From contig CAZLKB010000001.1 of NCBI GenBank assembly GCA_964560005.1, forward strand, positions 157,216 through 221,215: a DNA stretch of 64,000 nucleotides, in the 5' to 3' direction. Each line of letters starts with the position of its first letter. Within the stretch, counting starts at the first letter, position 1. The stretch comes from an uncultured Gammaproteobacteria bacterium. GTDB lineage: Bacteria > Patescibacteriota > Patescibacteriia > Patescibacteriales > GWC2-42-12. The notes beneath the pieces were generated by a model. It did no database searches, had not been told where the DNA came from, and saw nothing but the letters and a program-made list of their open reading frames with translations. Of the stretch, positions 8,013 to 44,031 are shown in pieces. The translations under genes and the position numbers were made by a program.

Positions 8013-8233
8013 TAATTTAACCGATAAATTATTACAATCTTAATTCAATATACCAAAGATTAACGCTAATAACAAGCTTTATCCTGTCAAATCCGCCTGC
8101 CTACCAGCAGGCGGAAATTTGCACAGCAAATTTATTTGACGGGGTGAACCACGCCAACCCCCTTTTAACAGGGTAAATAAAACACCCATTACAGGTGTGT
8201 TGGTTCAACGCTCTATGATAATCAACCAAGGGT

Positions 8234-10237: not shown

Positions 10238-10247
10238 ACTGAAATTT

Positions 10248-10655
10248 TTAAGTTAATATGCCGGTAGTGGTCAGTAATTTATCAAATACCCAATAGCTGA
10301 TGGCATAAGCGGCGATAATTATAATCAATCCGATAATCGCCCGCTGGATGGTTTCTTTGGCTTTATTGACCTTGTCTTCATCGCCTTGCGCGATCATCCA
10401 ATTATAGCCGGCGTATATTATATAGACCAAGAATAGCACGCCTAAAATTCCCAGCATTGCCTGAATAATCAAACCAATAATTCCAGCCAAGTCGTTTTGG
10501 CCTTCAGCTATAGGTTGGTAAGGCGCGTTGCTAAAACCCGTACCGACATTTTTTAAATTATTAGTTGATTGGCTCTCGGCTAAAACTAAGGATGGCATAA
10601 CCAGGAACGCCATTAAGCAGAAGGAAGCTATTATATGTTTTATTATTTTTTTCAT
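10248..10655 (-). CDS. VirB2/TrbC-like pilin paralogue 3 (start re-assigned to MKKIIKHII)
   Basis: IYAGYNWMIAQGDEDKVNKAKETIQRAIIGL. The first 51 codons of the ORF-track version (to 10808) run through palindromic repeat 10669-10809 and look non-coding. Confidence 0.6.
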   Translation of the reverse strand: MKKIIKHIIASFCLMAFLVMPSLVLAESQSTNNLKNVGTGFSNAPYQPIAEGQNDLAGIIGLIIQAMLGILGVLFLVYIIYAGYNWMIAQGDEDKVNKAKETIQRAIIGLIIIIAAYAISYWVFDKLLTTTGILT

Positions 10656-10668
10656 ATGGAATTTTAAT

Positions 10669-10809
10669 TTGTCATTCCCGCCCGTCTCGCCGTAGCGTAG
10701 CCGAGGCGGACGCAGGCACCCTGTTTTCTTTTTCAGCACCGAGGAGCAATCCAGGAGGTGTAGCTTAAGACATGTTTCTAGATTCCGGCTCGGAGGCCGG
10801 AATGACAAG
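10669..10809. repeat. GC-rich palindromic element bounded by TTGTCATTCC ... GGAATGACAA
   Basis: The right module gattccggctcggaggccggaatgacaag (10781-10809) recurs at 53451-53480 and 56843-56902; the left end is ttgtcattcccgcccg. Confidence 0.7.
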
Positions 10810-11250
10810 ATAAGAAATTGTCCTGCCGGCGCTCGCCCCCTTTAAGGTTCCTTTCTCCAGCCTGGACATGACGAACATGCTGATGGCGTAAGCGGCAATA
10901 ATTATAATCGCGCCCATGATCGCCCGCCTAATCGTATCCTTAGCCTTGGTAACTTTATCTTCTTCGCCCTGGGCGGTCAGCCAGTTGTAGCCGGCGTACA
11001 AAATATAAACCAAGAGCAATACGCCGATAATGCTTAAAAATATATTGATAATGGTTTGGACTAAAATTAGAGCGCTATCGTCATTACCAAGATCATACCC
11101 GGCTCTCTCGCCCACAATCCCCACGTCCACGCCTATGCCGTCTTTTACATTATTTTTTATAAGACCGGCATTAGCCTGATCGATAAAAACAAATATGGTC
11201 AAGAAAAAAGCTACAGCTAAAATTCCTATTTTTAAAAATTTTTTACGCAT
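10765..11250 (-). CDS. VirB2/TrbC-like pilin paralogue 4, C-terminus encoded by the repeat element
   Basis: LYAGYNWLTAQGEEDKVTKAKDTIRRAIMG. It has an unusually long tail ...LVIPASEPESRNMS read from the GGATTCCGGCTCGGAGGCCGGAATGACAAG element. Confidence 0.55.
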   Translation of the reverse strand: MRKKFLKIGILAVAFFLTIFVFIDQANAGLIKNNVKDGIGVDVGIVGERAGYDLGNDDSALILVQTIINIFLSIIGVLLLVYILYAGYNWLTAQGEEDKVTKAKDTIRRAIMGAIIIIAAYAISMFVMSRLEKGTLKGASAGRTISYLVIPASEPESRNMS

Positions 11251-11263
11251 ACTTTAAAAGAAA

Positions 11264-11638
11264 TTAAAACAATCTGCTGAAAACAAATCTCCAGATGGCG
11301 TAAGAGCCGACGACGATTATAAGTCCGATAATTGATCTGGTAATCGTATCCTTGGCTTTGCTGACTTTATCTTCATCGCCCTGCGCGGTCATCCAGTTAT
11401 AACCGGCGAAAATCATCAATACCAAAAAAATTATACCGATTAAGCCTAAGGCTACGCCTATTACGGTTCCAATGATTTCGTCCAGTGATAAAATAGTCGC
11501 CTGATTATAGGGTCCTTTTACGGTCGCAACATCATCTAATTCCAGTAGCGGAGGATTGGCGGCCAAAACCAACCGGGGCAATGCCAATACCGCCATTAAA
11601 CCAATTAGGGTTATTAATTTATTATACAGCTTTATCAT
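11264..11638 (-). CDS. VirB2/TrbC-like pilin paralogue 5
   Basis: IFAGYNWMTAQGDEDKVSKAKDTITRSIIGL between two TM helices. Confidence 0.6.
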   Translation of the reverse strand: MIKLYNKLITLIGLMAVLALPRLVLAANPPLLELDDVATVKGPYNQATILSLDEIIGTVIGVALGLIGIIFLVLMIFAGYNWMTAQGDEDKVSKAKDTITRSIIGLIIVVGSYAIWRFVFSRLF

Positions 11639-11664
11639 ATAATAATACTGAAAGAATTGGTAAA

Positions 11665-12153
11665 TTATTTAAACACTTTGGAACCAACTACATTAACAAC
11701 CGACCAGCTGATTACATAAGCGGCCAACACCACAATCAGCCCGATAATGGCATTGGTAATCGTCTGCTTGGCTTTTTCTACTTTCTGTTCATCGCCCCGC
11801 GCCGTCATCCAATTATAACCGCCGTAAATCGCTAAAACCAAAAAAATAATACCCATAAAGCTTAATACCATGGTTATAACCTGGCCAATGATGCTTTTAA
11901 AAGTTGCCGTGTTATTAAAGCCGGCGCCCTGGACGGCCACGGCGTCTAGCGGTGAACCTGTATTAGTATTAAAAGCATTGCCTAGTCCGGTAGTTGATGG
12001 ATTAACTCGTTTAATATAATTATCATAAGACTCGCCGCCCACCGGTTCTTGGTCTTGAGCTAACGCCGAGGTAACTAAAAACACTGAAAAAATAATCAAA
12101 AAGAACAAAATAAAAATTGATTTAACCGTCTTTATGTTGTAACGAATTGCCAT
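11665..12153 (-). CDS. VirB2/TrbC-like pilin paralogue 6
   Basis: IYGGYNWMTARGDEQKVEKAKQTITNAIIGL; overlaps the upstream paralogue by 22 nt. Confidence 0.6.
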   Translation of the reverse strand: MAIRYNIKTVKSIFILFFLIIFSVFLVTSALAQDQEPVGGESYDNYIKRVNPSTTGLGNAFNTNTGSPLDAVAVQGAGFNNTATFKSIIGQVITMVLSFMGIIFLVLAIYGGYNWMTARGDEQKVEKAKQTITNAIIGLIVVLAAYVISWSVVNVVGSKVFK

Positions 12154-12524
12154 AAGGGTATGATTAATTTAACTATCGCGTAAGCGGAAAAAATTACTAT
12201 TATTGCAATAATAGTATTGGTTATTAAGGCTTTTGCCTTCTCCACTTTCTGCTCTTCGCCCCGCGCCGTCATCCAGGTATAACCGCCATAAATTAATATC
12301 ACCATGGCGATTACGCCTATAAACACCGGCGCTAAAACCCCGCCCAGCATTTGTACGAAGAAGGCTCCGGGGTTTGACTCCGCTTTCGCTACCGGATAGC
12401 CGGCCTCTAAGCTGGTGTTCTTTAAACCGTCGGAAAATGAAGAACCGGCGGCGGCAACCGGTAAAACCTGAAAGGCGAAAACTAGTAAAACTATTAATAC
12501 AAAAAACTCGCTAACCTTTTTCAT
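12132..12524 (-). CDS. VirB2/TrbC-like pilin paralogue 7
   Basis: IYGGYTWMTARGEEQKVEKAKALITNTIIAI. Confidence 0.6.
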   Translation of the reverse strand: MKKVSEFFVLIVLLVFAFQVLPVAAAGSSFSDGLKNTSLEAGYPVAKAESNPGAFFVQMLGGVLAPVFIGVIAMVILIYGGYTWMTARGEEQKVEKAKALITNTIIAIIVIFSAYAIVKLIIPLWQFVTT

Positions 12525-12541
12525 AAAACCGGGCTTTAAAA

Positions 12542-12964
12542 TTACTTAAGCGCGTTACTGAAAACATCAGCTATAACTTTAGTAATAGCGTAAGCGCCTA
12601 AAATCACAATCAGGCCCAAGACCGAACCGATGATAGTCTCTTTGGACTTGGTAATTTTCGCTTCATCTCCCTGCGCCAGCATCCAGCCGAATCCGGCCCA
12701 GACAATCAGGCAGAAAAAAATAACTCCGACAAAGGCTAAGATCGCGCCCACGACTTTTCCGATGATGGTCGGCAGATCGGTTTGACTGGTCTGTATGCCG
12801 CCTGTATTGGCCGTATTAACCAGGCCGCTTATCGCGCTATCCACTCCGTTCGCACCGGCCGCGAAAACTACCGGCGCCATTAGTAAAAAAAATATAACAA
12901 TCATTAGGCTGCAGAAAATTATACTATATTTTGAAGTTAAAGACATAGAAAGTTTAAAATGCAA
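12542..12964 (-). CDS. VirB2/TrbC-like pilin paralogue 8
   Basis: VWAGFGWMLAQGDEAKITKSKETIIGSVLGL. Confidence 0.6.
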   Translation of the reverse strand: MHFKLSMSLTSKYSIIFCSLMIVIFFLLMAPVVFAAGANGVDSAISGLVNTANTGGIQTSQTDLPTIIGKVVGAILAFVGVIFFCLIVWAGFGWMLAQGDEAKITKSKETIIGSVLGLIVILGAYAITKVIADVFSNALK

Positions 12965-13211
12965 AAATTAAAATGAAAAATGCTAGCTCCGCTAGCACCC
13001 CGCAGATGCGGGGTCATTGCAGAGCAATGACAATGCAAAATTCAAAATTAATAAATGATTTTACATTTTGAATTGTCATTTTGATTTTTGCATTTTACAT
13101 TTTTAACTTTTATCGCTACTCTGCCCGCGAGCCCAGGCTCCCGTTCAGAGTAGCGGTCCCCAATAAATTGAGGACGCGCTTTTCTCAACACCATACCGGT
13201 ATTGAGAATGA

Positions 13212-13643
13212 TTAGGGGTTAGTAGTGGTAACATTAACGAGCTGTGTAATAACAAAGTTAGCGATAGCGTAAGCTAATATAACGATTACTAAACCAATCA
13301 GGCCGGCGATTAGCATTTTTTTAGCCGCGCCAATCTTATCTTCACTACCTCCGGCAGTCATCCATTTGAAACCGGCGATTAAAATAATAATTACTGCAAT
13401 GATACCTAAAAAGCCCATTATCCATCTTATAATAGATGTTATGGTACTATATGCATCTAGACCGCTTCCTGCCAAACCCGCATCTTCAGCAAATTGTGCC
13501 CCGTTAGGATCAGGGGTACCATTGGCATTCCAATAGTTATCAGCACTAACAGCTAAAGCTGGCAGAGAAAAAGCAAAAACCGGAGTTAGAATCAATAAGG
13601 CCATAACCAAGCCTAAACCTTTTTTCATTAATTTTTGTCTCAT
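13212..13643 (-). CDS. VirB2/TrbC-like pilin paralogue 9 (recent tandem duplicate of paralogue 10)
   Basis: LIAGFKWMTAGGSEDKIGAAKKMLIAGLIGL; GGAGGTGAAA Shine-Dalgarno sequence upstream; near-identical to 13831-14250. Confidence 0.65.
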   Translation of the reverse strand: MRQKLMKKGLGLVMALLILTPVFAFSLPALAVSADNYWNANGTPDPNGAQFAEDAGLAGSGLDAYSTITSIIRWIMGFLGIIAVIIILIAGFKWMTAGGSEDKIGAAKKMLIAGLIGLVIVILAYAIANFVITQLVNVTTTNP

Positions 13644-13830
13644 ATTTCACCTCCGATCAAAGTCAACACAAATATAACAAAAAATGATTTGTTTATACCT
13701 GTGTTAGTGAAGTTATTAAAATATCATCTTGTTTTTATCGCTACTCTGCGCGCGAGCCCAGGCTCCTGTGCAAGGTAGCGGCCCCCAAGTGATTGAGGGC
13801 TCGCTTTTCTTAATACCGGTATTAAGAATG

Positions 13831-14250
13831 TTAAGCAGCAGTAGTAGTAACATTAACGAGCTGTGTGATAACAAAATTTGCGATAGCATAAGCCATTATA
13901 ACGATCACCAAACCTATCAAACCGGATATTAATAATTTTTTAGCCGCGCCAATCTTGTCCTCGCTGCCTCCGGCAGTCATCCATTTGAAGCCGCCGATTA
14001 AGATAACAATCACCGCGATGATGCCTAAAAAGCCCATTATCCATCTTATAATAGATGTTATGGTGCTATATGCATCAAGGCCGCTTCCTGCCAAACCCGC
14101 ATCTTCAGCAAATTGTTCTCCGTTAGTATCAGGAGTACCATTGGCATTCCAAAAGTTATCAGTACCTGCAGCAAAGGCTGGCAGAGAAAAAGCAAAAACC
14201 GGAGTTAAAATCAATACAGCCATAACTAAACCCAATATTTTTTTTCTCAT
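13831..14250 (-). CDS. VirB2/TrbC-like pilin paralogue 10
   Basis: LIGGFKWMTAGGSEDKIGAAKKLLISGLIGL; GGAGGTGAAA Shine-Dalgarno sequence upstream. Confidence 0.65.
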   Translation of the reverse strand: MRKKILGLVMAVLILTPVFAFSLPAFAAGTDNFWNANGTPDTNGEQFAEDAGLAGSGLDAYSTITSIIRWIMGFLGIIAVIVILIGGFKWMTAGGSEDKIGAAKKLLISGLIGLVIVIMAYAIANFVITQLVNVTTTAA

Positions 14251-14482
14251 GTTTCACCTCCCTTCTAAATAACGAATATAATGCAAATTAATCAAAAATT
14301 TATACGAACTTATAAAATGAAAATATAAAATTCGTATTAATTTTATTTAATTCGCGTGTTTATCCGTTTTAATTCGCTTTTAATTCGTAATTAACTTATC
14401 AACCTTAATTATATTTTACCATAAAAGCCAAAAACTACCAATACCCCATATCTTATTATTGCCAACAATCCGCCCAATTCAG

Positions 14483-20430: not shown

Positions 20431-21633
20431 TTATTGCTTTATGGGCATTATAATATACAAATAGCTTTCGTCTTGTTCCGGCCGAATTAGGCAGGGAGTG
20501 TTGCCGTCTATTACTTCAATTTTAACCATCTCTTTTTCAATATTGCTTAATCCCTCAAGCAAGTAGCGATAATTAACCACCATGCTGTTTTCTTCGCCCG
20601 CCACCTTGGCCTGTAAATTAGTGATATTTTCTCCGGTTTGGCCGGAGACCGAGGATATTACCACCTGGTTTTTCCCGGCCGGAAAGTCCAGGTTTATATC
20701 ATTAATACCCGCTTTGGAAAACAAAGAAGCCATTTTTACCGCGCGAATCAATTCTTGGCGGTCAATTATAATTTTAGTCTTGCAATTAGTTGGAATAATT
20801 TGCTTATAATCCGGGTATTGGCCTTCAATCAGGCGAGAAACCAGCTCAACCGAGCCGTAAGTAAATAAAATCTGGTTGTCTGAAATATAAAATTTTATTT
20901 CCCGGCTGTTTTCCTCTACCTCGTCTTCCAGATTTATAGATAAAATTCTTAATAGCTCCTGCAGGGTTTTAGCCGGTACGATAATATTTTTTTCTTCTTG
21001 GCCGCCCGCCTGTGCCGGCGGGTTGGATTTATCCGGCGCTTTCTCTTGGGTGGCGCTGGATTTAATTTGGATTTTTTTCTCTGCCAAGCGATAACTGTCG
21101 GTGGCGGCCAGGGTTAAATAATCACCGGAAAACATAAATAAAACACCGGACAACTCCAGCCTGGTTTCGTTTAACGGAGCGGCAAAGATTACTTGGGAAA
21201 TCGCGTCTTTTAAGGCCGCGGCCTGGGCGCTGAAATAATTCTTCTTTTCCACTTCGGGAATTAAAGGAAAATCTTCAGCCGATTGCCCTTTAATTTTAGC
21301 TTGATAGTTTTCACAGTCAACCAAAATCTCGTTTTCTTTTTGGTTTAATCCTATTTTTTTATTCGGCAGCAAACTTATGCAATCTAAAATAATCTTTGAA
21401 TTAACCGTGAATACGCCCTCGGCCTCAATTTTCCCCCTAACCGCGCTGATTATGCCTATTTCTAAATTGGTCGCGGCTAGTTTTATTTTCCCCTCATCCA
21501 CTTTAATTAAGATATTGTTTAAAATCGGCAAGTTTACATTTTTTCCGGCTATATGGCTTACCAGCGCCAAGCCTTGTTTTAAATTTTCCTGCAAGCTGAA
21601 TATTTTAATTCCGTTAGATTTTTCGTTGTTCAT
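20431..21633 (-). CDS. dnaN: DNA polymerase III beta sliding clamp, with GC-rich in-frame insert
   Basis: 400 aa; LATNLEIGI, SGDYLTLAATDSYRLA, LIEGQYPDYKQIIP and C-terminal YLYIIMPI; extra segment SSATQEKAPDKSNPPAQAGGQEEK. Confidence 0.9.
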   Translation of the reverse strand: MNNEKSNGIKIFSLQENLKQGLALVSHIAGKNVNLPILNNILIKVDEGKIKLAATNLEIGIISAVRGKIEAEGVFTVNSKIILDCISLLPNKKIGLNQKENEILVDCENYQAKIKGQSAEDFPLIPEVEKKNYFSAQAAALKDAISQVIFAAPLNETRLELSGVLFMFSGDYLTLAATDSYRLAEKKIQIKSSATQEKAPDKSNPPAQAGGQEEKNIIVPAKTLQELLRILSINLEDEVEENSREIKFYISDNQILFTYGSVELVSRLIEGQYPDYKQIIPTNCKTKIIIDRQELIRAVKMASLFSKAGINDINLDFPAGKNQVVISSVSGQTGENITNLQAKVAGEENSMVVNYRYLLEGLSNIEKEMVKIEVIDGNTPCLIRPEQDESYLYIIMPIKQ

Positions 21634-21914
21634 ATTTTTTGCCCGCGTAGATTTAAAATCTTAATCTTACGGTTTTATTTTTATTAATTTAAATTAATAA
21701 TATAAATATAAATAAATGATAACAATAATATGCGGGTTGATGGGTTATTATTTAGATAAATTTTAGCTAAAATTATTATTAATTTTTATTTATTGGCTGT
21801 GTTTTGGTTGTTGAAAAGTAAATCAATTTAATGGGCAGAGGGTGTATAAAAACGTGGTTATAAAAATAAAAAATTAAACCTTCAACAACCTAACCACCGC
21901 CAATCACCAAATTA

Positions 21915-23273
21915 TTAACCGTTATAAATCAATTGTTTTATTGAATTGATGTTTTGCTTGGTGCGTTCATCTTCTTCGTATTCTTTAACGACTTTATTAT
22001 AGGCGTGCATGGCGGTAGTATGATCGCGGCCTCCGAGTTCCTGGCCGATTGAAGGATAAGACGAGTTTATTTCTTTTCTCATCAAAAACATGGCGATTTG
22101 CCTGGGGACCACCAATTCTTTTTTTCGGCTTTGCCCGACAATATCTTTTATATTAATATCAAAAAATTTGGAAACCGCTTCAATTATGGTTTTCGCTGTT
22201 GTAGATTTTGATTGAAAATTGGAAATAATGCCGGCCAAAACATTCTTGGTTGAGTCAATTGAAGGTAAAGAATTATTAAATTCATAATAGGCGATTAATC
22301 TATTAAGCGCCCCCTCAAGTTCGCGTATATTACTGGTAATATTATTAGCAATATAAGCCAAAATTTCTTTATCAAGCTTATAATTTTTTTCCTTGCACTT
22401 GGTTTCTAAAATTGCGATTCTGGTTTCAACATCCGGGGCGCCGATATCGGCGATCATGCCCCACTCAAAGCGCGAAAGCAGCCTTTTTTCCAGAGCCGGA
22501 ATAGCTTTGGGCGGGCGATCGGAAGAAATTACAATTTGACGGTTAGTTTGGTGCAGATCATTAAAAGTATGGAAAAATTCTTCTTGCGTGCCGTCTTTGC
22601 CGCCCATAAAATGGATATCGTCAATTAAAAGCAAATCAACATTGCGATAGCGGTCTTTAAAATCTTTGGCTTGGCCGTTTCTGACGGCTTGGATATAATC
22701 GTTGGTGAATTTTTCACAAGAAACATATAATATTTTTTCCGTTTTTTTGGACAATTCATGGCCGATCGCTTGGAGCAAGTGGGTCTTGCCCAAACCAACC
22801 CCGCCATAAATAAAAAGCGGGTTATAGGCGTGCCCGGGGTTGGCCGCCACCGCCTGGCTGGCCGCGTGAGCCAGCTCGTTATTTTTCCCCACGATAAAGC
22901 TGTCGAAAATATAGCGGTTATTTAAGCCAAAGCGGTTGATGGTTTTTGGCTTATTTTCAACGATATTTTCAGTTTTGGCATTTTTAATAAAACTACCGGG
23001 CAAGGCTTCTTTTCTAACCTCAACCTTGTATAAAATTTCTTTTACTTCCAGAGAACTAAGGTTCTTAAAGGCATTGGCAATTTCTTTGTGGTATTTTTTT
23101 TCTAGCCAGGCTTTAGTGAAAGTGTTGGGCACGCAAATAATTATTTGGCCGCCTTCATGGGAAGAGATAAAGGTGTTTTTAAACCAAGTGGTAAAATTAG
23201 CCTTAGATAAGGTTAGCTCGATTTCGCCTAAAACAGCTTGCCAAAGCTGTTCGTTGTTCATAATTTGGGGCAT
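21915..23273 (-). CDS. dnaA: Chromosomal replication initiator DnaA
   Basis: Walker A GGVGLGKTHL, LLIDDIHF, and C-terminal HTH region RDHTTAMHAYNKV. Confidence 0.95.
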   Translation of the reverse strand: MPQIMNNEQLWQAVLGEIELTLSKANFTTWFKNTFISSHEGGQIIICVPNTFTKAWLEKKYHKEIANAFKNLSSLEVKEILYKVEVRKEALPGSFIKNAKTENIVENKPKTINRFGLNNRYIFDSFIVGKNNELAHAASQAVAANPGHAYNPLFIYGGVGLGKTHLLQAIGHELSKKTEKILYVSCEKFTNDYIQAVRNGQAKDFKDRYRNVDLLLIDDIHFMGGKDGTQEEFFHTFNDLHQTNRQIVISSDRPPKAIPALEKRLLSRFEWGMIADIGAPDVETRIAILETKCKEKNYKLDKEILAYIANNITSNIRELEGALNRLIAYYEFNNSLPSIDSTKNVLAGIISNFQSKSTTAKTIIEAVSKFFDINIKDIVGQSRKKELVVPRQIAMFLMRKEINSSYPSIGQELGGRDHTTAMHAYNKVVKEYEEDERTKQNINSIKQLIYNG

Positions 23274-23289
23274 TATGATTGAATGTTAG

Positions 23290-35759: not shown

Positions 35760-35833
35760 GGGGTGGTAGCTCAATTGGTTAGAGCGCTGCCCTGTCACGG
35801 CAGAGGTCGCGGGTTCGAGTCCCGTCCATCCCG
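35760..35833 (+). tRNA. tRNA-Asp (anticodon GTC)
   Basis: ggggtggtagctcaattggttagagcgctgccctGTCacggcagaggtcgcgggttcgagtcccgtccatcccg. Confidence 0.85.
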
Positions 35834-35836
35834 CAA

Positions 35837-35872
35837 AAAAGATAAAGCCCCCTTCGGGGCTTTATCTTTTTT
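35837..35872. terminator. Terminator hairpin after tRNA-Asp
   Basis: aaaagataaagcccc-ttcg-ggggctttatctttttt. Confidence 0.75.
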
Positions 35873-35883
35873 ATGAGATAGAA

Positions 35884-35986
35884 GACGGGACGAGAACGCC
35901 GGACCCCGCATTTGCGGGGGAGGCGGTGGCTAGGCCGAGGAGGCGGCAGCCGACGAGAGCCGAAGCCGAGTCCCGTCCATCCCGCA
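35884..35986 (+). pseudogene. Duplicated tRNA-Asp 3' end with ~70-nt GC-rich insert (att-like)
   Basis: cgagtcccgtccatcccgca at 35967-35986 is a 20/20 direct repeat of 35816-35835; preceded by gacgggacgaga and GC-rich hairpins (ccccgcatttgcgggg). Confidence 0.6.
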
Positions 35987-36131
35987 TTTTTTGGAAAACA
36001 GAGCTAGAGCTCTGTTTTTTTGATAGTTAATTGAAAAGGGCAGGAACGCTTTACAGATATTACTTAATATGATATTGTTTCAAGACGGTAAATATGTAAC
36101 ACTATACTTCAATACACCGCCCCATTAATTT

Positions 36132-36317
36132 ATGAGAATGCCAGATGACCCAAGACCAGACACAGTACCAGGTAACAGACAATATGCAGCGCTCGCTGCT
36201 GCTGCATTGCTTGGCGACGAGGCCGCTGCTAGAGTGCTCCTTGAAATTGACAAGAGAGGACAGGCGGATGTCGAGAAACCGCCACAAAGAAAAGAAGACG
36301 GGGTTGCAAACTCGTAA
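36132..36317 (+). CDS. Hypothetical small Ala/Pro-rich protein (frame choice uncertain)
   Basis: GC-rich patch with four overlapping ORFs; this one ends 10 nt before the + strand terminator 36328-36367. Confidence 0.3.
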   Translation: MRMPDDPRPDTVPGNRQYAALAAAALLGDEAAARVLLEIDKRGQADVEKPPQRKEDGVANS

Positions 36318-36327
36318 CCCACCATCA

Positions 36328-36367
36328 AGAGACCGACTGCTATGGATTATCGGTCTCTCTTTTTTTA
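36328..36367 (+). terminator. Rho-independent terminator
   Basis: agagaccg-actgctatggattat-cggtctct then cttttttt. Confidence 0.75.
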
Positions 36368-36402
36368 TTTAATTATATATGGTATATAATAATATCCCTT
36401 TA

Positions 36403-36444
36403 ATTCCCTGAAAAAGGTTATAATCTGGTCCACTTGCTCCCGCA
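36403..36444 (+). repeat. Degenerate tRNA-Asp 3'-end-like direct repeat, copy 2
   Basis: tccctgaaaaaggttataatctggtccacttgctcccgca; compare the tRNA ggttcgagtcccgtccatcccgca. Confidence 0.55.
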
Positions 36445-36570
36445 AACGGAACGAGGTCATAAAACGGCTTCGTTTTTATTTTAGGTTAGGCAATTAATTT
36501 GGTTGTAGTGGTTGTGGTTTGGGCGTGGAAGTGGTAAAATAGAGGCATAATTTTTAAGTAATAAAAATAT

Positions 36571-37380
36571 ATGCATAAGAGAAAATATTTGATAATTTTA
36601 GTTGTTATTTTTTTCATAATTATTGGAAGTTATATTTGTGTCCAATATATTTTAAATAGTATACCGCGAAACGACAGTCAAGCACCGAGAACATTCGCCT
36701 GGTTTTATAAAAATTCTGATGTTATTAGCTATGTGGAGATATTAGCAGTAGATGTAAATGTTGTTCCGTCTGACAAATTGGCTCCTCCTGGCAGCTGGGT
36801 TCTTCACCCCAAACAAGCCGTCAAAGTAAAATTGCTAAAAGTTTTAAAAGGGTCAAAACAAAACGGAGAGACATTAGAAGTCTTGAAACCAAGTTCATAT
36901 TTTTATTTTACGCCAGGACAAAAACTGGTAGTTTATCTGAAGAGACACGGAAAGAGTTATCAAGCCTTAGTTGATAGTGGCGAATGGAGGTTGGCATTTG
37001 TTATGGCAGAACTTAATATCTTAAAAGGAAAAGCTAATGGAGGAATTGTAGCGTCAGCCATTGAAGATGGGAGCGATGTTCCTCGGACTATCTATGTTCT
37101 AAGTGGCAGACAAAAAGCCCCGATGATTTTTAATAGCCAACAATGGAATGATGCTTTTATAACCCAAGGTCAAATCGACCAAAGTAATGTGGCAGAGATT
37201 CCTCTTGACCCGGGTTCTTATACAATTTTATTAGGTAAAACGGTAGAAATCCCTCTCGACTCCGATTTACTCGGGCAAGCTGTTGCCCTATATCCGTTTA
37301 ACAGGCTTGTTGATGAATATTATCCTTATATCACTTTAGATAAATATCGTCCGTGGCGACCGATTGTCTTCAGCCAATAA
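36571..37380 (+). CDS. Hypothetical N-terminally membrane-anchored protein (cassette between direct repeats)
   Basis: 269 aa; TM LIILVVIFFIIIGSYICV; no recognisable motif. Confidence 0.45.
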   Translation: MHKRKYLIILVVIFFIIIGSYICVQYILNSIPRNDSQAPRTFAWFYKNSDVISYVEILAVDVNVVPSDKLAPPGSWVLHPKQAVKVKLLKVLKGSKQNGETLEVLKPSSYFYFTPGQKLVVYLKRHGKSYQALVDSGEWRLAFVMAELNILKGKANGGIVASAIEDGSDVPRTIYVLSGRQKAPMIFNSQQWNDAFITQGQIDQSNVAEIPLDPGSYTILLGKTVEIPLDSDLLGQAVALYPFNRLVDEYYPYITLDKYRPWRPIVFSQ

Positions 37381-37445
37381 TTTATTAGATATTAACATTT
37401 AAATTTTAGACTTAAATAAGATTTTAGGAATATAATAATCAGTAT

Positions 37446-37487
37446 TTTCCTTAAAAAAGGTGATAATCCCGTCCACTTGCTCCCGCA
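37446..37487 (+). repeat. Degenerate tRNA-Asp 3'-end-like direct repeat, copy 3
   Basis: ttccttaaaaaaggtgataatcccgtccacttgctcccgca; 1043 nt downstream of copy 2. Confidence 0.55.
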
Positions 37488-37504
37488 TTAAATATTTCAT
37501 TATT

Positions 37505-37544
37505 AAAACAAAACACCTCGCCGGATGGCGAGGTGTTTTGTTTT
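37505..37544. terminator. Bidirectional terminator (18-bp stem)
   Basis: aaaacaaaacacctcgcc-ggat-ggcgaggtgttttgtttt between convergent genes. Confidence 0.8.
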
Positions 37545-37570
37545 TGCTTTTTCTCTGATTCCTTTGCCTT

Positions 37571-38893
37571 TTAATAGGATCCTGAAACGATCACAATCGT
37601 ATCTGCCGCTACTGTATTTTGATTATTATTCGCTATTCCGCGAATTCGTACAACGTTGCCGACCATAAGATCGCTCCAGTTGCCAAGTCTGCCGTTTATA
37701 TAAATGGTTGTTGAATTATTGGTATTGACGGTCCAGGTTTTATCAGAATTGTCGGTTTTTAACAGCGTGATTCTTAAGGTTTTGGCCGTATTGTCAATGG
37801 ATGTAACCGAACCTAAACGATGCGCCACGCCCAGACGCTGGATGGATTCATCCTTTATCACTCTGGCTACCAGGTGACCGGTGGTTTCATCCCGTCGGCC
37901 GATGATGCGGATGGAATCACCCTCGCTTAGTTCGTTTAAAAGCGCTTTGCCGTAGTATCTTCGTACCAGCATGGTGTCGGCAGAGATATCAATCATTATT
38001 TTCGTTCCCGGAGCGCCAATCAGGTTATTGACATCGTTTTTTTCGTAAAATTTTGAATCATTTACCGAGGCTTCGATTGTAATTGGCACGGCCAGGTTTT
38101 GCGGTACCAAAGTTATAGTCGCGGGCACTACCCATCTCGTGACGCGCATAAACAGGGTTTCGCCGCGGCGCAGGACGACCAGAATGCTGGTGTTCCAGGT
38201 AAGCTTGCTGCCGTCGTTATCATCGGTAACTCGCGCGCGAACGCGATCATTAATTTGCAAATCATTGATGCTCGCCGGATTCTTGAGACCGGCGACCATA
38301 TTCGCGTTGTCTAAGTTTAGCGTATAGATAACATTATTACTCCAGAGTACGTCAATTTTATTGGCGTCAGTATTTATGGCCCTAATCCAGCCGTTGATTC
38401 CCGTATGTCCGGGCTTAAAAGAGGTATTTACGAGCCGAGTCGCCAGCAACGTATCGCTATTTATAAAGTGCCGCGCCGTGAAGGCGATAGAGTCTCCGGC
38501 GATCCAATCGCTCAGATTTGCCTGCGCGCCGCCGTTGGTGGCCAGCCTGGTATTATTATCAATTTCAAAGGTGCGATCTTCGGAAACTCCGCTCAAGGTG
38601 GTCGTTCGAATAATAATCGTCGTATTCTTTGCTGTCGTATTGCCGATTTCAATCAAGGCGCCGCTGCCGGACACGGTTTCAGTGGCTTCAGAGGTTGCTT
38701 CATTTACAGTGTTTTCTTTCGCCCCCAGCATCTCCGCCCTAACATCAATATTTACATCGGTGCTGATATGCTCGCCGATCCTCAAATGTTCATAGAAATC
38801 CAAACCCAAGGCTCGGGTCGTCATCGGCGGATAAGCGATCGCCAGCAGGCCGAATAGAAGGAGCGCGGTTTTCATTTTTTTTAATTTTTTCAT
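37571..38893 (-). CDS. Secreted repeat protein (four or more beta-rich repeats ending G(D/N)x(I/V)R(I/A)xG)
   Basis: Signal peptide MKKLKKMKTALLLFGLLAIA; repeats around IAGDSIAF, INDRVRARV, EGDSIRIIG, VGNVVRIRG; GC-richer than the surroundings. Confidence 0.5.
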   Translation of the reverse strand: MKKLKKMKTALLLFGLLAIAYPPMTTRALGLDFYEHLRIGEHISTDVNIDVRAEMLGAKENTVNEATSEATETVSGSGALIEIGNTTAKNTTIIIRTTTLSGVSEDRTFEIDNNTRLATNGGAQANLSDWIAGDSIAFTARHFINSDTLLATRLVNTSFKPGHTGINGWIRAINTDANKIDVLWSNNVIYTLNLDNANMVAGLKNPASINDLQINDRVRARVTDDNDGSKLTWNTSILVVLRRGETLFMRVTRWVVPATITLVPQNLAVPITIEASVNDSKFYEKNDVNNLIGAPGTKIMIDISADTMLVRRYYGKALLNELSEGDSIRIIGRRDETTGHLVARVIKDESIQRLGVAHRLGSVTSIDNTAKTLRITLLKTDNSDKTWTVNTNNSTTIYINGRLGNWSDLMVGNVVRIRGIANNNQNTVAADTIVIVSGSY

Positions 38894-39137
38894 ATGCGTT
38901 TTAGTTAACTACGGATAGTAGTCTGGTTATATTAAGATCTTATATTAAGGTGGTTGTAAAACTATTCCTGGCGATAATTCGCTATTTTAGACCAAAACAT
39001 CGTTTGACTGGCGCTAAATGATTTTTTTCGTAATTATTTACTGTTAAAATCATTTAGTTTGTCTTTTTTGCTTGGTCAATAAATATCTAATTTAGCCATG
39101 AAATAGTTTTATAACCACCTCATGATTTTTAAATTTC

Positions 39138-39386
39138 TTAACGCCGCAGAATTCCGACAATCCAGACAAGAATCACGGCTCCGAGTAGCGCCACCAGAAA
39201 GCTGTAAAAATTAAAACCGCTGACGCCGCCCCGGCCAAATAAGTTCATAATCCAGCCGCCTAATAACGCGCCGACAATCCCGACGATAATGTTCAGTATA
39301 ATGCCCTGCTGAGCGTCGGTCTTCATAATTAGAGACGCGACCCAGCCCACTAAACCTCCGAAGATGATCCAGATAATAATGTCCAT
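39138..39386 (-). CDS. GlsB/YeaQ/YmgE-family (transglycosylase-associated) stress membrane protein
   Basis: 82 aa; IIWIIFGGLVGWVASLIM......GIILNIIVGIVGALLGGWI. Confidence 0.8.
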   Translation of the reverse strand: MDIIIWIIFGGLVGWVASLIMKTDAQQGIILNIIVGIVGALLGGWIMNLFGRGGVSGFNFYSFLVALLGAVILVWIVGILRR

Positions 39387-39455
39387 ATAGTTTTATTAAA
39401 TTAATTATTTCCTCTGTTAAATTCGCCCTAGGCGAATTTATTTAATAGGGTTTAC

Positions 39456-39893
39456 TTAATTTTGGCTATCCAGCTTAGTATGCGCCTCCTGATCCGAGAC
39501 AGGTTTGCTCATAACCAGTAGTTTAACCGCCCCCCAGGCGATAAGCGCGTAGATAATCATGGCCAAGAGGATGGACCAGTCAAAAATGCTTCTGCCGACT
39601 TGCGAAGGATTCACCACATTTACGAACGACCCGGCCAGAGGGGAAGATATAACATAAATAAATTGGGTGAAGCCGGCCGACATATTAGCGCCGATGAATT
39701 TTAGAACAAAGCGCAGAGCCAAGAGTATTTCAATCACTCCCAATATGTACCAAACGATTTGCGAGCTTCTGAAGCGAAGCCTAATCGGACTGACGACTGA
39801 CTGCGCGTTTATGGGTTTTGCGCCTATAGTGGGTTCGCCGTTCCGCTCATTCGGCATTACCGAATTAGGCTGTTCTCTAGTTATTGTTTCCAT
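39456..39893 (-). CDS. YggT-like membrane protein
   Basis: IVWYILGVIEILLALRFVLKFIGAN...F.QFIY.IS.PL pattern; moderate resemblance only. Confidence 0.45.
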   Translation of the reverse strand: METITREQPNSVMPNERNGEPTIGAKPINAQSVVSPIRLRFRSSQIVWYILGVIEILLALRFVLKFIGANMSAGFTQFIYVISSPLAGSFVNVVNPSQVGRSIFDWSILLAMIIYALIAWGAVKLLVMSKPVSDQEAHTKLDSQN

Positions 39894-39904
39894 AGTAATG
39901 TTAG

Positions 39905-40522
39905 TTATATTTTTTTAATATTTTTTTCAGTTGAAGATTTTTTCAATTCGTTTATTTCATTCTCTAATTTTCCAATACGAACTTCCTGGCTATGCAGCCG
40001 TTCCGCCGCCCTGGCCGTAGGCTGATTGGCGCGGCTGGCCAGCGTTTCGGCGACAAGCATTATTTCCGTGACATCTTCCATGGCCAAAAGGATAATGGGC
40101 GGGAACAATTCCGCAGTAGTGTCTTCTTTAAAATGAATCTGGCGGGCATTTAAGATCATTATTTTGCGTCCGACAAAAGGAAACTCGTGAGCCACTTCAA
40201 ACCCTTTGAAAAAGGTATTTTTGGGCAAAATATCTTCCAGTAATTTCCGTAAGGCGGGAATATTCCATTGGCCGTTGCCGAGTTCATAAACGACCTTGCC
40301 TTCGGTGTCATTCGGTTCTACTTGGAATGTCTGATAGAAAGGCTTATTGGCCGCCATTATGCGAAGATCCTTATCTAGGACCAAGACCGGTTCTCGGATG
40401 ATATCTACCACGGTCTTAATATAGGTCCAGCTTTTTTCCCATAAATGCTCAACGAAATCTTTTCCTAAAGGCTTAGCGGTTCGTGGCAGGCTTTTATTAC
40501 TATCCTTATTATTTATTTTCAT
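39905..40522 (-). CDS. Stand-alone PAS-domain protein with C-terminal coiled coil
   Basis: EPVLVLDKDLRIMAANKPFYQTFQVEPNDTEGKVVYELGNGQWNIPALRKLLEDIL...ILNARQI resembles the PAS domains of CheR/CheB fusion proteins. Confidence 0.6.
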   Translation of the reverse strand: MKINNKDSNKSLPRTAKPLGKDFVEHLWEKSWTYIKTVVDIIREPVLVLDKDLRIMAANKPFYQTFQVEPNDTEGKVVYELGNGQWNIPALRKLLEDILPKNTFFKGFEVAHEFPFVGRKIMILNARQIHFKEDTTAELFPPIILLAMEDVTEIMLVAETLASRANQPTARAAERLHSQEVRIGKLENEINELKKSSTEKNIKKI

Positions 40523-40630
40523 ATTTATTGTTTTAACGGCATAAATGATTTAGGCATAAAATTTAGGCGTTATCTTTTCTCATCGGCGATATTAATATTA
40601 TCTCGTTATTATTAAGATCCGGTTAAGAAG

Positions 40631-40870
40631 CTATGGCGCAAGCTTATAAGACGCCCGGTTAAACGACCGCAAAGCCGTGCCATCGTTGGTAAAATCAGTC
40701 TTGTTTTTAGAGAGGCTGGTGTCAGTTTGAAATTCCGTCAATCCGCTCTGATTCGCGATTATGGTGTTCGTTTCGTTAACCGGTGCGGCCCGGTCTTTAA
40801 TTATAAAAAATATTCCACCGACTATGATTGCTAGGGCAACTAGGCTGATGATGATATTTTTGTTTATCAT
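40631..40870 (-). CDS. Hypothetical small membrane-anchored protein
   Basis: 79 aa, single N-terminal TM IIISLVALAIIVGGIFFII. Confidence 0.35.
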   Translation of the reverse strand: MINKNIIISLVALAIIVGGIFFIIKDRAAPVNETNTIIANQSGLTEFQTDTSLSKNKTDFTNDGTALRSFNRASYKLAP

Positions 40871-41542
40871 ACGATTTGACTTTATATAAACAAAGCCGTT
40901 GGGAAAGGCGAATTATTACATGCCAACGCGCTTGCCCGTCCGGCCTCTAGGCAGAGTCGAGCAAAAAATAATTAAAGCCAAATAGTGAGTTATAACACAA
41001 ACCCGTCCGGCTTTATGCGGGACGAGCTTTGTGTTATAGCTAGAAGCAGTTCATTTCTAAGAGCGATTAAGCATCCCCATGCTTGTTGATATTTATCAAT
41101 TATTAACTATTAACTTAAAGATGAAAGCTGTAAAATCCGGTTATCCGTTTCAGCTTTCTTTTTAATTTTATAATTTTGATTTTGAAAAAAAATATTCTGG
41201 TTTTTAAGCACATATTTTCAAGGTTAAAAAACGCTCTTAATGAAAAATTAATATACCTTCTATATGCTTGCCAAGCCAGTCTTTCAGCCATTTCTTGTTA
41301 GCCTAATAAATATTAAGCCGTTTAAGAGACCGAATTATTACACATTGCTATTTAAATGATAGGGGTGTATACTTATGGCTCAAGCGCTTTCTCAACGGCA
41401 GAATAGATTTGTAGCGCCGGTGTAATTAAATCAAGCTGATATGGGCGTTATTTTTGTGCTAAATATAGCGATAATAACCTTGCTATTATATTTAAAATGT
41501 AATATCAGTGTAATATAACACCGCTCCGCACGGCTTCTATTT

Positions 41543-42067
41543 ATGGCCCATATTTTACTCCCGAAACAAATTACGTCTCTACAAGAAACTTTGGCCGCGG
41601 CGCATCACGACTACGAGAAAGGTCTTAACGCACGCTCATTTTTCAAGGTACCCGACCGTGCTATCAGTGAAGACTTGGTACAAGAAACTTTTATGAAAAC
41701 CTGGCGCTACCTCGTTAGAGGCGGCAAAATTGACATAATGAAGGCCTTTCTCTATCACATTTTGAATAACTTGATCGTTGATGAATATCGCAAGCGCAAA
41801 ACCGTCTCGCTGGATATTCTTAGCGAAAAAGGCTTTATACCGAGCCACGATCATTCCGTGCGCTTGATAAATGTTTTGGACGGGAAGGCGGCATTACTCT
41901 TGATTCAAGACCTGCCCGAAAAATATAAAAAGGTGATGTGCATGCGGTATGTGCAAAATTTGTCGCTCAAAGAAATGTCTCTTATAACCGGACAGTCAAA
42001 AAACGCCATCGCCGTGCAGGCCCATAGAGGACTCGTAAAGCTTAAATTATTGTATCATCAAGCATAA
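41543..42067 (+). CDS. ECF-type sigma-70 family RNA polymerase sigma factor
   Basis: Region 2 DLVQETFMKTWRYL...LYHILNNLIVDEYRKRK; region 4 LPEKYKKVMCMRYVQNLSLKEMSLITGQSKNAIAVQAHRGLVKLK. Confidence 0.8.
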   Translation: MAHILLPKQITSLQETLAAAHHDYEKGLNARSFFKVPDRAISEDLVQETFMKTWRYLVRGGKIDIMKAFLYHILNNLIVDEYRKRKTVSLDILSEKGFIPSHDHSVRLINVLDGKAALLLIQDLPEKYKKVMCMRYVQNLSLKEMSLITGQSKNAIAVQAHRGLVKLKLLYHQA

Positions 42068-42204
42068 ATGAAAATCGCCGGCCTGTGCCCGCGGTTTTTT
42101 TTAAATAAAAAAAGCCGCGTTCTTATTGACGCGGCTGTGTTTTTATTTGTTATCAGCTCGGGGTTGATTAGTATTGGGGAACGAAGACGACCCTTCTTAT
42201 GCCA

Positions 42205-43755
42205 TCAATGTCGGAAATGCCGGAAGCCGGTAAAGACCATGGCCATGTCACGGTTATTAGCGGCGGCAATAACTTCGTCATCGCGCACCGAACCGCCGGG
42301 TTGAATGGCCGCGGTGGCGCCGGCCTCGGCGGCGGCAATCAGGCCGTCAGGGAAGGGGAAGAAGGCGTCGCTCGCTACCACACTGCCTTTAAGCGACAGC
42401 CCGGCTTTGCCCGCTTTCCAGACCGCGATTTCACTGGAGTCAACGCGGCTCATCTGGCCGGCACCGATGCCCAGCGTGCGGTCTTCGCCCGCGTATACGA
42501 TAGCGTTAGACTTTACATGCTTCACCACCCGCCAGCCAAAAAGCATGGCCCTAAGTTCCGCCGATGTCGGACGGCGCACGGTCGCATATTTTACATTTTC
42601 AGAGGTGGTGAAGTGTAGGTCATTCTCCTGGAGTAGGAAGGAATCCGCGCCTACGCTGCGAAGGTTCCGGGCCAGGGATTCGCGCATGGGCCGGAGCAGT
42701 TCTATCAATCGTAGATGTTTCTTCTTCCGCAGGATTTCTAGAGCGTCCGGCGTAAAACCCGGCGCTACGATAACCTCGGAGAAAATCTCGCTGATCGCCT
42801 CGGCACAGTCGGCGTCGAGCGGTTTGTTGACCGCGATGATGCCCCCGTAAGGCGCTTGCTGGTCGGTGGCGTACGCCTTATCCCAAGCTTCACGCAGAGT
42901 ACCGGCACGGCCGACGCCGCAGGGATTGGTGTGTTTTAAAATTACCAAGGTCGGCCCGTCGTAGGCGAATTCGCCGATGAGCCCAGCCGCGGAGGTGAGA
43001 TCCAGGATGTTGTTGTAGGAAAGTTCTTTGCCATGGAGTTGCTTAAAGAACGAACTAAATCGGCCGTACAGAGCGGCCTTCTGGTGCGGATTCTCTCCAT
43101 AGCGCAGGGGTTGAACTAGCGGAGCTTGGATGAACAGATGATTTGGCAGATCCCTTGATGCGTTACGGAAGGTTCGGCCGAGATATTCGGCGATGGCGCC
43201 GTCGTAGGCGGCGGTGCGCTCAAATACTTTCGCGGCCAGCTGGCGGCGCAGTTCCAGGGTGGTTTCACCGGTCGCCTTAATTTGTTCCGCGACCTCGGCG
43301 TAATCGGCCGGATCCACTACCACCGTGACGCTTTCATGGTTTTTGGCCGCGCTTCGAAGCATGGCCGGACCGCCGATGTCAATGTTTTCAATGGCTTTGG
43401 CCAGAGTGGCGTCTGGGTTGGCAATGGTCTGTTCAAAGGGATAGAGGTTGACCACCACCAGATCAATCGGCAGAATGCCGTGTTCCTTGGCGACGGCCTC
43501 ATGTTGGGGATTGCCGCGAATAAAGAGCAGGCCGCCATGCGCTTTGGGGTGGAGTGTTTTGACGCGGCCGCCCAGTATTTCCGGAAAGCCGGTATAAGCG
43601 CTAAGATCCGTGACCGTCAGGCCGGCCTCGCGCAGGGCTTTGGCAGTACCGCCGGTGGAAATGATTTCTATGCCAGCTTCGATTAATGCCTTGGCAAGGG
43701 GTAGTAAGCCGGTTTTATCGGAAACCGAAAGAAGTGCTCGTAATATTCTGTTCAT
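42205..43755 (-). CDS. purH: Bifunctional AICAR transformylase / IMP cyclohydrolase
   Basis: [12 protein letters not shown]...STGGTAKAL...[13 protein letters not shown]...VVVNLYPF; C-terminal FFPFPDG; conspicuously GC-rich. Confidence 0.9.
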
Positions 43756-43862
43756 GCTGTATCTCCGTTGTTGATGTTTGTTGATGTTTTATGAGGAATG
43801 ACTTGTTTTAAGGTACATCCTCCCGTGCGGTAAGATTAGAAAAAATCAACCATAAAGTCAAG

Positions 43863-43972
43863 TTAATCTCGTAACTCGCAACTCGTAACTCGCAACTCAT
43901 CTTTTTCGGTGTGCAGATTATCTAATTACGCATTTGAGTTATGAGCTATGGGTTACGAGTTGCGAGATAATT
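43863..43972. repeat. Word-repeat palindrome (AACTCG/TAACTCG units) in the purH/ychF divergent region
   Basis: ttaatctcgtaactcgcaactcgtaactcgcaactcat ... atgagctatgggttacgagttgcgagataatt. Confidence 0.65.
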
Positions 43973-44031
43973 AAATCTCTGCTAAATTCAAGATAGAATA
44001 ATAATATGGATTGCACTAGTTAATGATTATA

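Follow-up and report, generated by a model that had tools for sequence, protein, structure and literature searches.

A row of small, integrase-less segments behind a tRNA-Asp gene of a Falkowbacteria-like bacterium: the case for repeated site-specific recombination

Bacteria of the candidate phyla radiation (CPR) have tiny genomes, and little is known of how these gain and lose genes. The locus described here comes from such a genome: it lies in a 64,000-nt stretch of contig CAZLKB010000001.1 (GenBank assembly GCA_964560005.1), which is referred to below, at its full length, as the window. Its subject is a tRNA-Asp gene and the row of small segments that follows it. The host belongs to the Patescibacteria (CPR) and is Candidatus Falkowbacteria-like; the closest relatives of the SpoU-family methylase encoded at the locus are found in the same group. 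The 3' 49 nt of the tRNA-Asp gene have matches only in metagenome-assembled genomes of Falkowbacteria and Patescibacteria and in one metagenome-assembled genome of Ferruginibacter.

The tRNA-Asp gene itself (anticodon GTC; 35760-35834, plus strand) is found by ARAGORN and scores 71.9 bits against Rfam RF00005; CCA is not encoded. It is the putative attachment target. The tRNA region ends in a 20-nt stretch that runs from T-loop position 56 up to the closing CCCGCA (site A1; 35816-35835, plus strand); this stretch stands again at 35967-35986 on the same strand (site A2). The sequence-only reading of this stretch had called the repeat perfect, and so it is: the 20-mer, CGAGTCCCGTCCATCCCGCA, occurs exactly twice in the window (at 35816 and 35967), its two copies agree at 20 of 20 positions, and 100 shuffles of the window yielded no match even at 3 mismatches, a chance expectation of 0. 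(A technical note: the count of 20 includes the CA that follows the tRNA discriminator.) The block of identity starts at T-loop position 56, with the break between TT and CGAG, which is the canonical T-loop sublocation; Williams reportedly set out, in 2002, the sublocation classes of integration sites in tRNA genes. The distal boundary of the A1/A2 interval is accordingly marked by a direct repeat of the tRNA's 3' portion, just as in islands that target tRNA and tmRNA genes. An exact-pattern scan of IMG/VR gave 0 matches to the 20-mer. The shorter motif TCCCGCA occurs five times on the plus strand of the window, four of these at the sites A1 and A2 and at two further sites, B1 and B2, that are described below; after every CCCGCA of the stack there is a hairpin with a T-run.

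Three segments can be marked off behind the tRNA gene. The first, c0, is a non-coding mini-element of 151 bp (35836-35986, plus strand) consisting of a terminator, a GC-rich core and A2. Its left part is a terminator hairpin with a T-run (35836-35872, plus strand; fold -22.8 kcal/mol, z score -5.75). Its core (35884-35966, plus strand) folds with z scores of -4.1 to -4.4 and comprises a helix P1, with its 5' strand at 35884-35891, a helix P2 around a variable hairpin, and a helix P3 with purine-rich internal loops. Together with part of A2, in which bases 35970-35977 provide the 3' strand of P1, the core is predicted to form a three-way junction closed by GACGGGAC/GUCCCGUC (z scores -3.2 to -4.4). 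The GC-rich insert, put at ~70 nt in the sequence-only reading, is not filler: it is a conserved structured element present in three genomes.

The second segment, n, spans 458 bp (35987-36444, plus strand), and both of its junctions follow CCCGCA. It opens with a terminator recognized by its fold (35993-36021, plus strand) and carries a 61-aa open reading frame (ORF; 36132-36317, plus strand) that has no Pfam match and no homologue in the related loci fetched for comparison. A further terminator, likewise seen in the fold, stands behind this ORF (36328-36366, plus strand), and the segment closes with the end module B1 (36381-36444, plus strand). The third segment, x, spans 1043 bp (36445-37487, plus strand) and consists of a conserved left end, a cargo ORF and the end module B2 (37427-37487, plus strand). 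The left end (36445-36561, plus strand) contains a hairpin or terminator (36448-36476, plus strand) and a promoter-like sequence, GGAAGTGGTAAAATAGAGG (36527-45, plus strand), a 19-mer that is found at this left end only, in the window and in one relative. The cargo is a membrane-anchored near-orphan protein of 269 aa (36571-37380, plus strand) without a Pfam match; among 5.8 billion proteins it has one homologue, 36% identical and in an unrelated context. Beyond x lies a bidirectional terminator (37505-37544) that is shared with the convergent gene at 37571-38893 (minus strand). The ORF list bears out the earlier statement that exactly one gene (36571-37380) separates B1 from B2 and that the distance from end to end is 1043 bp. 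The terminators that had been claimed for each segment are also real: 35836-35872, 35993-36021 and 36328-36366 by their folds (z scores -3.3 to -5.8), and 37505-37544 as well, to which the previously unlisted one at 36448-36476, directly after B1, must be added.

What are the B modules? B1 (GGTATATAATAAT ... CTTGCTCCCGCA) and B2 can be aligned over ~61-65 nt, from GG(T/A)ATATAATAAT to CTTGCTCCCGCA, and their similarity ends exactly at CCCGCA. The likeness between them that the sequence-only reading had noticed is thus real, and it is longer than the ~40 nt then claimed. Within it, GTCCACTTGCTCCCGCA occurs exactly twice in the window, at 36428 and 37471. Resemblance to the tRNA's stretch between T loop and 3' end had also been claimed for both, and shuffled controls separate the two cases. 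B2 has TCCCGTCCA and TCCCGCA in common with the tRNA end; outside the tRNA nothing in the window matches better, and 13 of 5000 shuffles reach its score. B1 shares TCCCGCA alone, and 272 of 5000 shuffles do as well. For the B sites as a whole the resemblance is modest. Nor do the B sites look like degenerate, decayed copies of the tRNA. B1, B2 and a third copy in a related genome (L017, introduced below) have derived features in common: ATAAT where the T loop would be, an insertion of 5 nt (CTTGC), and ~40 nt of further upstream sequence. Shared features of this kind point to a conserved module at the ends of cassettes rather than to tRNA ends that decayed independently, and on the evidence of these alignments a conserved cassette-end module is what the B sites are. 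Across genomes the B modules are 75-83% alike. On the plus strand they contain two TATAAT boxes, and there is one match in a promoter scan, at 37407-37436.

On the minus strand each B junction is crossed by a small ORF whose coding status is uncertain: 31 aa over B1 (36365-36460; MTSFRLREQVDQIITFFRELKGYYYIPYIIK), annotated by NCBI, and 33 aa over B2 (37399-37500; MKYLMREQVDGIITFFKENTDYYIPKILFKSKI). The minus strand of all three B modules reads (L/M)REQVD-II-FF-E...YYIP with a stop soon after, and several of the differences between them are at third codon positions. A profile search of the same 5.8 billion proteins with the B1 ORF matched only the 31-aa protein annotated in its own genome. The thought that this ORF is the C-terminal tail of an integrase spanning attP was entertained, the frame being continuous across the junction with that of the L027 recombinase described below; it has no homologue, and the proposal was set aside as unsupported. 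The B modules are not attC-like hairpins either: DNA folds on both strands give z scores of -0.4 to -1.5 and no consistent hairpin.

A separate observation concerns the right end of B2. Its last 26-30 nt (37459-37487) are nearly identical (26-27 nt identical; 29 of 30 positions, with one indel) to a stretch in the family-A DNA polymerase gene of phages represented by two IMG/VR contigs, L009 (UViG_3300005081_000006, positions 13119-13148) and L010 (UViG_3300005882_000037, positions 8425-8454). On the minus strand B2 and the phage stretch both read LMREQVDGII, and this frame in the phage gene encodes a conserved polymerase motif, LMREQVDGIIHP. Among 80 relatives of the phage polymerase the peptide motif is kept and the nucleotides are not; the likeness between B2 and the phages stops sharply at both sides. 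It may reflect a pseudo-att site in the phage, a captured fragment or a remnant. GenBank phages yielded no significant match to the B2 region.

Comparison with syntenic loci from about a dozen related genomes, found through homologues of the SpoU gene and cited here by their L numbers, permits a look at how the locus varies. The conserved backbone runs RNase HII, methyltransferase, UPF0102, Big_13, helix-turn-helix regulator, SdpI, SpoU, tRNA-Asp, a variable interval, YchF, N6 methyltransferase, S6, SSB, S18, EF-P and RecA. From one genome to the next, what lies between tRNA-Asp and ychF is nearly always different, from ~0.15 kb (L015, L022), where it is nearly empty, to ~8.1 kb in the window (35836-43966); L016, L019, L020, L021 and L029 have other genes in it. 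Sites that are empty or different (L015, L016, L013, L022), together with a locus that lacks n (L017), came out of this comparison across relatives. The remainder of the interval in the window (37545-43966) is lineage-specific filling that codes for a DUF5666 protein, YGGT, PAS, sigma-70 and purH, and homology to the empty site of L015 resumes at 43967. The word "island", used in the sequence-only reading, overstates the matter: 35.8-44 kb is the lineage-specific filling of a hypervariable interval and includes ordinary genes (purH, the sigma factor, the YGGT-family gene). Two observations on this interval may be added. The tRNA-Asp gene is inverted relative to the SpoU gene in L019-L025 and in L029-L031, so the locus has undergone inversions besides insertions. 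The GC content of the purH region (42001-44000) is 0.51-0.57, compared with ~0.40 elsewhere in the window, and the adjacency of purH and ychF is common to L013; the region may have been acquired horizontally, or purH may just be a conserved gene of atypical composition.

The informative relative is L017 (GCA_030650415.1), whose SpoU is 71% identical to that of the window. Its tRNA-Asp, terminator, GC-rich element and second 20-mer (6102-6121) are arranged as in the window. To the right of the second 20-mer, however, the two part company: what follows in L017 (AACGGAAC..., ~120 nt) is homologous to the sequence that lies to the right of B1 in the window, and TCCCGCA immediately precedes the first homologous base. 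Segment n (35987-36444; 458 bp) is thus a presence/absence polymorphism with both breakpoints at ...CCCGCA. This is the pattern, presence or absence with breakpoints at the repeats, by which tandem tRNA islands are known. The homologous sequence in L017 (6115-6239) is the left end of x; there it opens a 1.8-kb segment whose cargo (a protein of 142 aa and an MNT/HEPN pair) is unrelated, and that segment too has a B module at its right end (7840-7911; 83% identical to B1 and 80% to B2). Conserved ends accordingly enclose cargo that has been exchanged. L017 joins the x-type left end to an A site and the window joins it to a B site, which makes A and B ends interchangeable at the 7-nt core. To the right of the L017 B module stands a terminator like the native tRNA-Asp terminator of L016, where the site is empty. 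In the window, the terminator that follows A2 and opens n has the stem of the native tRNA-Asp terminator of L013, a genome whose tRNA is identical. The 151 bp of c0 consequently sit between the tRNA and its former terminator. Cargo was of no help as a guide to other cassettes, since the 61-aa, 142-aa and 353-aa proteins have no homologue in any fetched locus.

No recombinase was found in the window, whether by phmmer with three queries (XerC, lambda Int, resolvase), by tblastn with the recombinase of L027, or by Pfam analysis of the ORFs at 33.9-48.3 kb; the absence of an integrase from the window, noted earlier from the sequence, is borne out. The site does hold an integrase-bearing element in one relative, L027. 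There an ORF running antisense into the tRNA-Asp 3' end encodes a large serine recombinase of 538 aa (6977-8593, minus strand; domains Resolvase, Recombinase and Zn_ribbon_recom). Its neighbor is a gene for a rolling-circle Rep (PF23343; 8886-9779, minus strand): this is an integrated plasmid- or phage-like element. A related, diverged recombinase is found at the same tRNA-Asp site in L028 (5823-6145). The window was also inspected for remnants of the L027 recombinase; there are none beyond a trivial stretch that is antisense to the tRNA.

Taken together, these arrangements are probably, though far from certainly, the product of repeated site-specific events at tRNA-Asp that have left three integrase-less segments stacked behind the gene. 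In this model the 3' end of tRNA-Asp would be the attachment site for site-specific recombination in this Falkowbacteria-like lineage, with c0, n and x arrayed head to tail behind it, none having a recombinase gene of its own. Each segment would be built alike, with a hairpin terminator on the left and, on the right, an att-like site that closes with TCCCGCA; the left-end terminator would serve whatever RNA ends at the junction. Circular elements would recombine with the tRNA 3' end one after another, or be lost again. As in cis-mobilizable elements, the recombinase would act in trans, and the likeliest candidate is a large serine enzyme like that of L027. Two types of site would be at work: a c0 type with the full 20-nt block from midway along the T loop, and a B type with TCCCGCA and up to 9 nt more. 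As the B type shares only ~7 nt with the tRNA at its 3' end, crossover between an A and a B site would take place in or beside TCCCGCA. The segments may still be movable. Repeated integration at tRNA-Asp followed by decay had been surmised from the sequence; the match of the junctions to presence and absence in L017 and the serine recombinase at the site in L027 speak for repeated integration, while the decay has to be given up.

Several considerations weigh against recombination as the source of the stack. A single indel comparison, that of the window with L017, defines the B-type junction, and a slippage deletion between two 7-nt TCCCGCA repeats would look identical. An element of 151 bp is very small for excision as a circle. 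There is no recombinase in the window or beside any c0- or B-type segment; the L027 enzyme is tied to the segments of the window by its location only, and the far end of the L027 element (attR) is off the contig. The attP and attB half-sites of large serine recombinases are normally unlike, and a long block of identity is typical of tyrosine integrases at tRNA genes, so that with a block of 20/20 a tyrosine integrase fits at least as well. The core of c0, moreover, is far better conserved than c0's own terminator and is kept in L006, where a second 20-mer is not recognizable: this indicates a function other than that of an att arm. Finally, an exact 24-mer of the core has 0 matches in JGI metagenome or IMG/VR contigs, and there is accordingly no sign of recent spread.

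The conservation of the core leads directly to the alternative that survives best. It holds that c0, like its look-alikes elsewhere, encodes all or part of a structured RNA. This RNA would be produced out of the tRNA's 3' trailer and would mimic two parts of the neighboring tRNA, its T arm and its acceptor 3' strand; the second 20-mer would be kept for function and would not be a scar of recombination. The look-alikes have a common build: T-stem 5' strand, GC-rich hairpins, the rest of the T loop, T-stem 3' strand and acceptor 3' strand. One is in the window, behind tRNA-Cys (7940-8012), at 7855-7932 on the minus strand: ACATGGGTT, a 50-nt GC hairpin pair and CAATTCCAATTCTGGCCTC (fold z score -3.3) form a copy of the tRNA from the T arm to the 3' end, split between T-loop positions 55 and 56 by an insert that is unrelated to the core of c0. 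L011 has two tandem 97-nt units behind its tRNA-Asp with the same split point as the tRNA-Cys element, and L020 has a mini-element behind tRNA-Asp whose copy of the tRNA end matches that genome's own tRNA variant. Such copies of the tRNA end were found within 160 nt of 5 of the 29 tRNA genes examined. The recurrence of the build and the GC-richness of the hairpins in a genome of ~40% GC suggest that the mini-elements have a function of their own, either as plus-strand structured RNA or as a structured recombination site.

For c0 in particular, 47 of 49 core positions in L017 and 44 of 49 in L006 are identical to the window, as against 29-32 of 44 in the terminator part and ~72% nucleotide identity in the neighboring genes of the c0-bearing genomes; the terminator hairpin of L006 and L017 is homologous to that of the window and shows compensatory stem changes. 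The three substitutions between the cores of L017 and the window are all neutral for the predicted structure on the plus strand (two are C-to-U changes that keep G.U pairs in stems, and one is in a loop), and the P2 hairpin of the window is exchanged in L017 for a different, longer hairpin. To this the RNA explanation can add the three-way-junction fold, the copy in L020 that tracks its own tRNA, and the same build at two different tRNAs in one genome. Pulling the other way are the lack of a promoter between the strong tRNA terminator and the element, which makes transcription dependent on read-through; the core of L006, which persists without the 3' strand of P1; the small alignment, of three sequences only, with no double compensatory change in P1 or P3; and the interiors of the elements at Asp, Cys, L020 and L011, which are unrelated to one another. 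In addition, L013, a nearer relative of L017 and L006 than the window, has no c0, and a native-like terminator now stands after A2, as expected for an insertion. Searches of Rfam 15, whose models include tmRNA, SRP RNA, Y-RNA-like RNAs and ribozymes, returned no family for the GC-rich element (at the gathering score only tRNAs were hit; at E <= 10, on 2.1 kb and on 166 nt, there was nothing meaningful). We think it likely that selection acts on the GC-rich core in its own right, as a structured RNA of the plus strand; that the RNA explanation accounts for c0 and its look-alikes as a whole is a possibility to be entertained, with less confidence than we place in recombination. The two can coexist, since a structured RNA in c0 is compatible with recombination at the B sites.

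Other identities for the GC-rich element were considered and rejected. By eye it could be likened to domain IV of signal recognition particle RNA or to the tRNA-like domain of tmRNA; no model matches, ARAGORN finds no tmRNA, and the acceptor stem is without G3.U70. A dispersed repeat of REP/PATE/MITE type is at odds with the confinement of the core to the tRNA-Asp loci of the window, L006 and L017, and with the unrelated sequence of the tRNA-Cys insert. Likewise by eye, a bridge-RNA-like guide or an IS200/IS605-type mini-element was considered: there is no nearby recombinase or transposase, there are no dispersed copies, and no consistent target duplication is seen. As for c0 being a vertically inherited clade marker, the identity matrix of SpoU, which is weak evidence from a single gene, does not group the c0-bearing genomes.

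The relatives also hold tRNA-Asp fragments of another kind. In L011, directly upstream of the intact tRNA-Asp, 8043-8356 contains a 5' tRNA-Asp-like fragment in which a palindromic GC hairpin replaces the anticodon arm, followed by an ORF for a GIY-YIG nuclease; in L016 a GIY-YIG gene (7147-7383) abuts tRNA-Asp too. L027 (6856-6900) and L028 (5660-5705) have a 5' tRNA-Asp fragment (GGGACGGTAGCTC ... AGTTGGTT) with a GC-rich hairpin in the D loop, ~45 nt upstream of the intact tRNA.

Could the B modules be explained without a dedicated recombinase? A second alternative proposes that they and the left end of x are simply conserved flanks (promoter and terminator modules, a small minus-strand gene, or both) between which cargo was swapped by homologous recombination, and that n came or went by slippage at TCCCGCA. 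The left end of x (~75%) and the B module (80-83%) are indeed as similar between genomes as the surrounding genes (72%), or little more so; the B modules have their TATAAT boxes and promoter-scan match and no hairpin structure; the minus-strand ORF retains REQVD-II-FF-E--YYIP, with 6 of 10 substitutions, as counted from alignments, at third codon positions; and NCBI annotates the ORF over B1 as a protein. Simple flanks, on the other hand, would not be expected to yield two tandem B modules in one genome, each ending at CCCGCA with a different terminator after it; nor do they fit the junction of the same left end to an A site rather than a B site in L017, the use of the same tRNA end by the integrase-bearing element of L027, or a small ORF that has no homologue outside its own genome. 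We regard this explanation as unlikely. That the repeats are a chance similarity or an assembly artefact is next to impossible: B1 on its own does resemble the tRNA end no better than ~5% of shuffles, but the 20-mer repeat has a chance expectation of zero, the region is identical in the independent assemblies of two sequencing runs, and the same arrangement exists in the independent genome L017.

With recombination at tRNA-Asp retained as the favored explanation, how does the locus compare with known systems? In kind it belongs with the tandem, partly integrase-less islands at tRNA and tmRNA genes. The closest published analogue is provided by the ssrA islands of Dehalococcoides (McMurdie et al. 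2011), which lie in tandem downstream of a tRNA-like gene, are bounded by 20-bp direct repeats of its 3' end, and have a ~540-aa serine recombinase encoded on the reverse strand next to attL (PMC3146451). They are 10-30 kb in size, a conserved motif stands just upstream of each repeat, and 15 of them without an integration module were read as cis-mobilizable elements (PMC3146451). The row described here resembles them in its tandem units bounded by a 20-bp tRNA-end repeat, its integrase-less members and the conserved sequence upstream of the repeats, and the recombinase has its counterpart in L027. It differs in its target, tRNA-Asp instead of tmRNA; in its host, a CPR bacterium; in the size of its segments, 0.15-1.8 kb with zero to three genes; in that no segment of the window carries an integration module; and in having the second type of site, B, with ~7-16 nt in common with the tRNA end and a conserved module of ~61-65 nt.

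Cis-mobilizable elements (CIMEs) are integrase-less, att-flanked segments that lie in tandem at one site and are presumed to be moved by the recombinase of a related element. These elements, and site-specific accretion, have been described for the integrative and conjugative elements of Streptococcus (cited in PMC3146451 and PMC5704250). The segments behind tRNA-Asp share all of these properties, a related element as the presumed source of recombinase among them; unlike CIMEs, they have no conjugative or integrative partner in the window and are much smaller, and their mobility is putative. Integration into tRNA T loops is also known from phages, mycobacteriophage Ms6 being one (PMC1762012). 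In common with such phages and islands, the block of identity here runs from the T loop to the 3' end, and the tRNA is rebuilt while the displaced copy marks the far end; unlike them, only 131 bp separate the copies, and the content is a conserved GC-rich structured element.

Integron arrays invite a further comparison. Here, too, there are short, mostly single-gene cassettes in one orientation, each with a conserved end module, and orphan or toxin-antitoxin cargo (MNT/HEPN in L017). There is, however, neither IntI nor attI; upstream are the SpoU methylase gene and the tRNA, and the array is anchored on a tRNA 3' end. Unlike attC sites, the B modules are not imperfect palindromes and have no single-strand fold, and the cassettes come with promoter-like and terminator elements of their own. 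Identity with integrons was rejected: searches of the window found no tyrosine recombinase, and the B modules are not attC-like. One can nevertheless imagine a miniature integron-like system on the tRNA 3' end in Falkowbacteria and related Patescibacteria, in which single-gene or non-coding cassettes, each with its own terminator, promoter and end module of ~61-65 nt, would enter and leave through a recombinase whose gene lies elsewhere, and in which the pseudo-T-arm elements would be a new class of structured RNA that mimics tRNA ends, or a new class of recombination site, within that system. We put this forward as a doubtful conjecture.

What is new at this locus is how small the units are (0.15-1.8 kb), that conserved ends enclose exchanged cargo, and that pseudo-T-arm elements with GC hairpins recur. 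One tRNA end seems to have been a landing pad for very small units: an orphan membrane protein gene, a toxin-antitoxin pair (in the relative) and a non-coding structured element, stacked with boundaries that are visible to the nucleotide. Should the segments be movable in trans, they would constitute a compact cassette-exchange system in a lineage of which little mobile DNA is known, and a serine recombinase with short sites could make useful tools. The GC-rich element and its tRNA-Cys look-alike are candidates for a new type of structured RNA or of recombination site. Should the stack consist of fixed scars alone, the locus is an instance of ordinary, though unusually small, island accretion at a tRNA gene.

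Two features that lie elsewhere in the window deserve mention. Some 10 paralogous genes for small membrane proteins of the T4SS_pilin / TrbC-VirB2 family (PF18895) occupy 9806-14253 on the minus strand. Farther along, dnaN and dnaA (20434-23285, minus strand; recognized by eye from their translations) coincide with the minimum of the cumulative GC skew at 21-22 kb, and this is probably the region of the replication origin.

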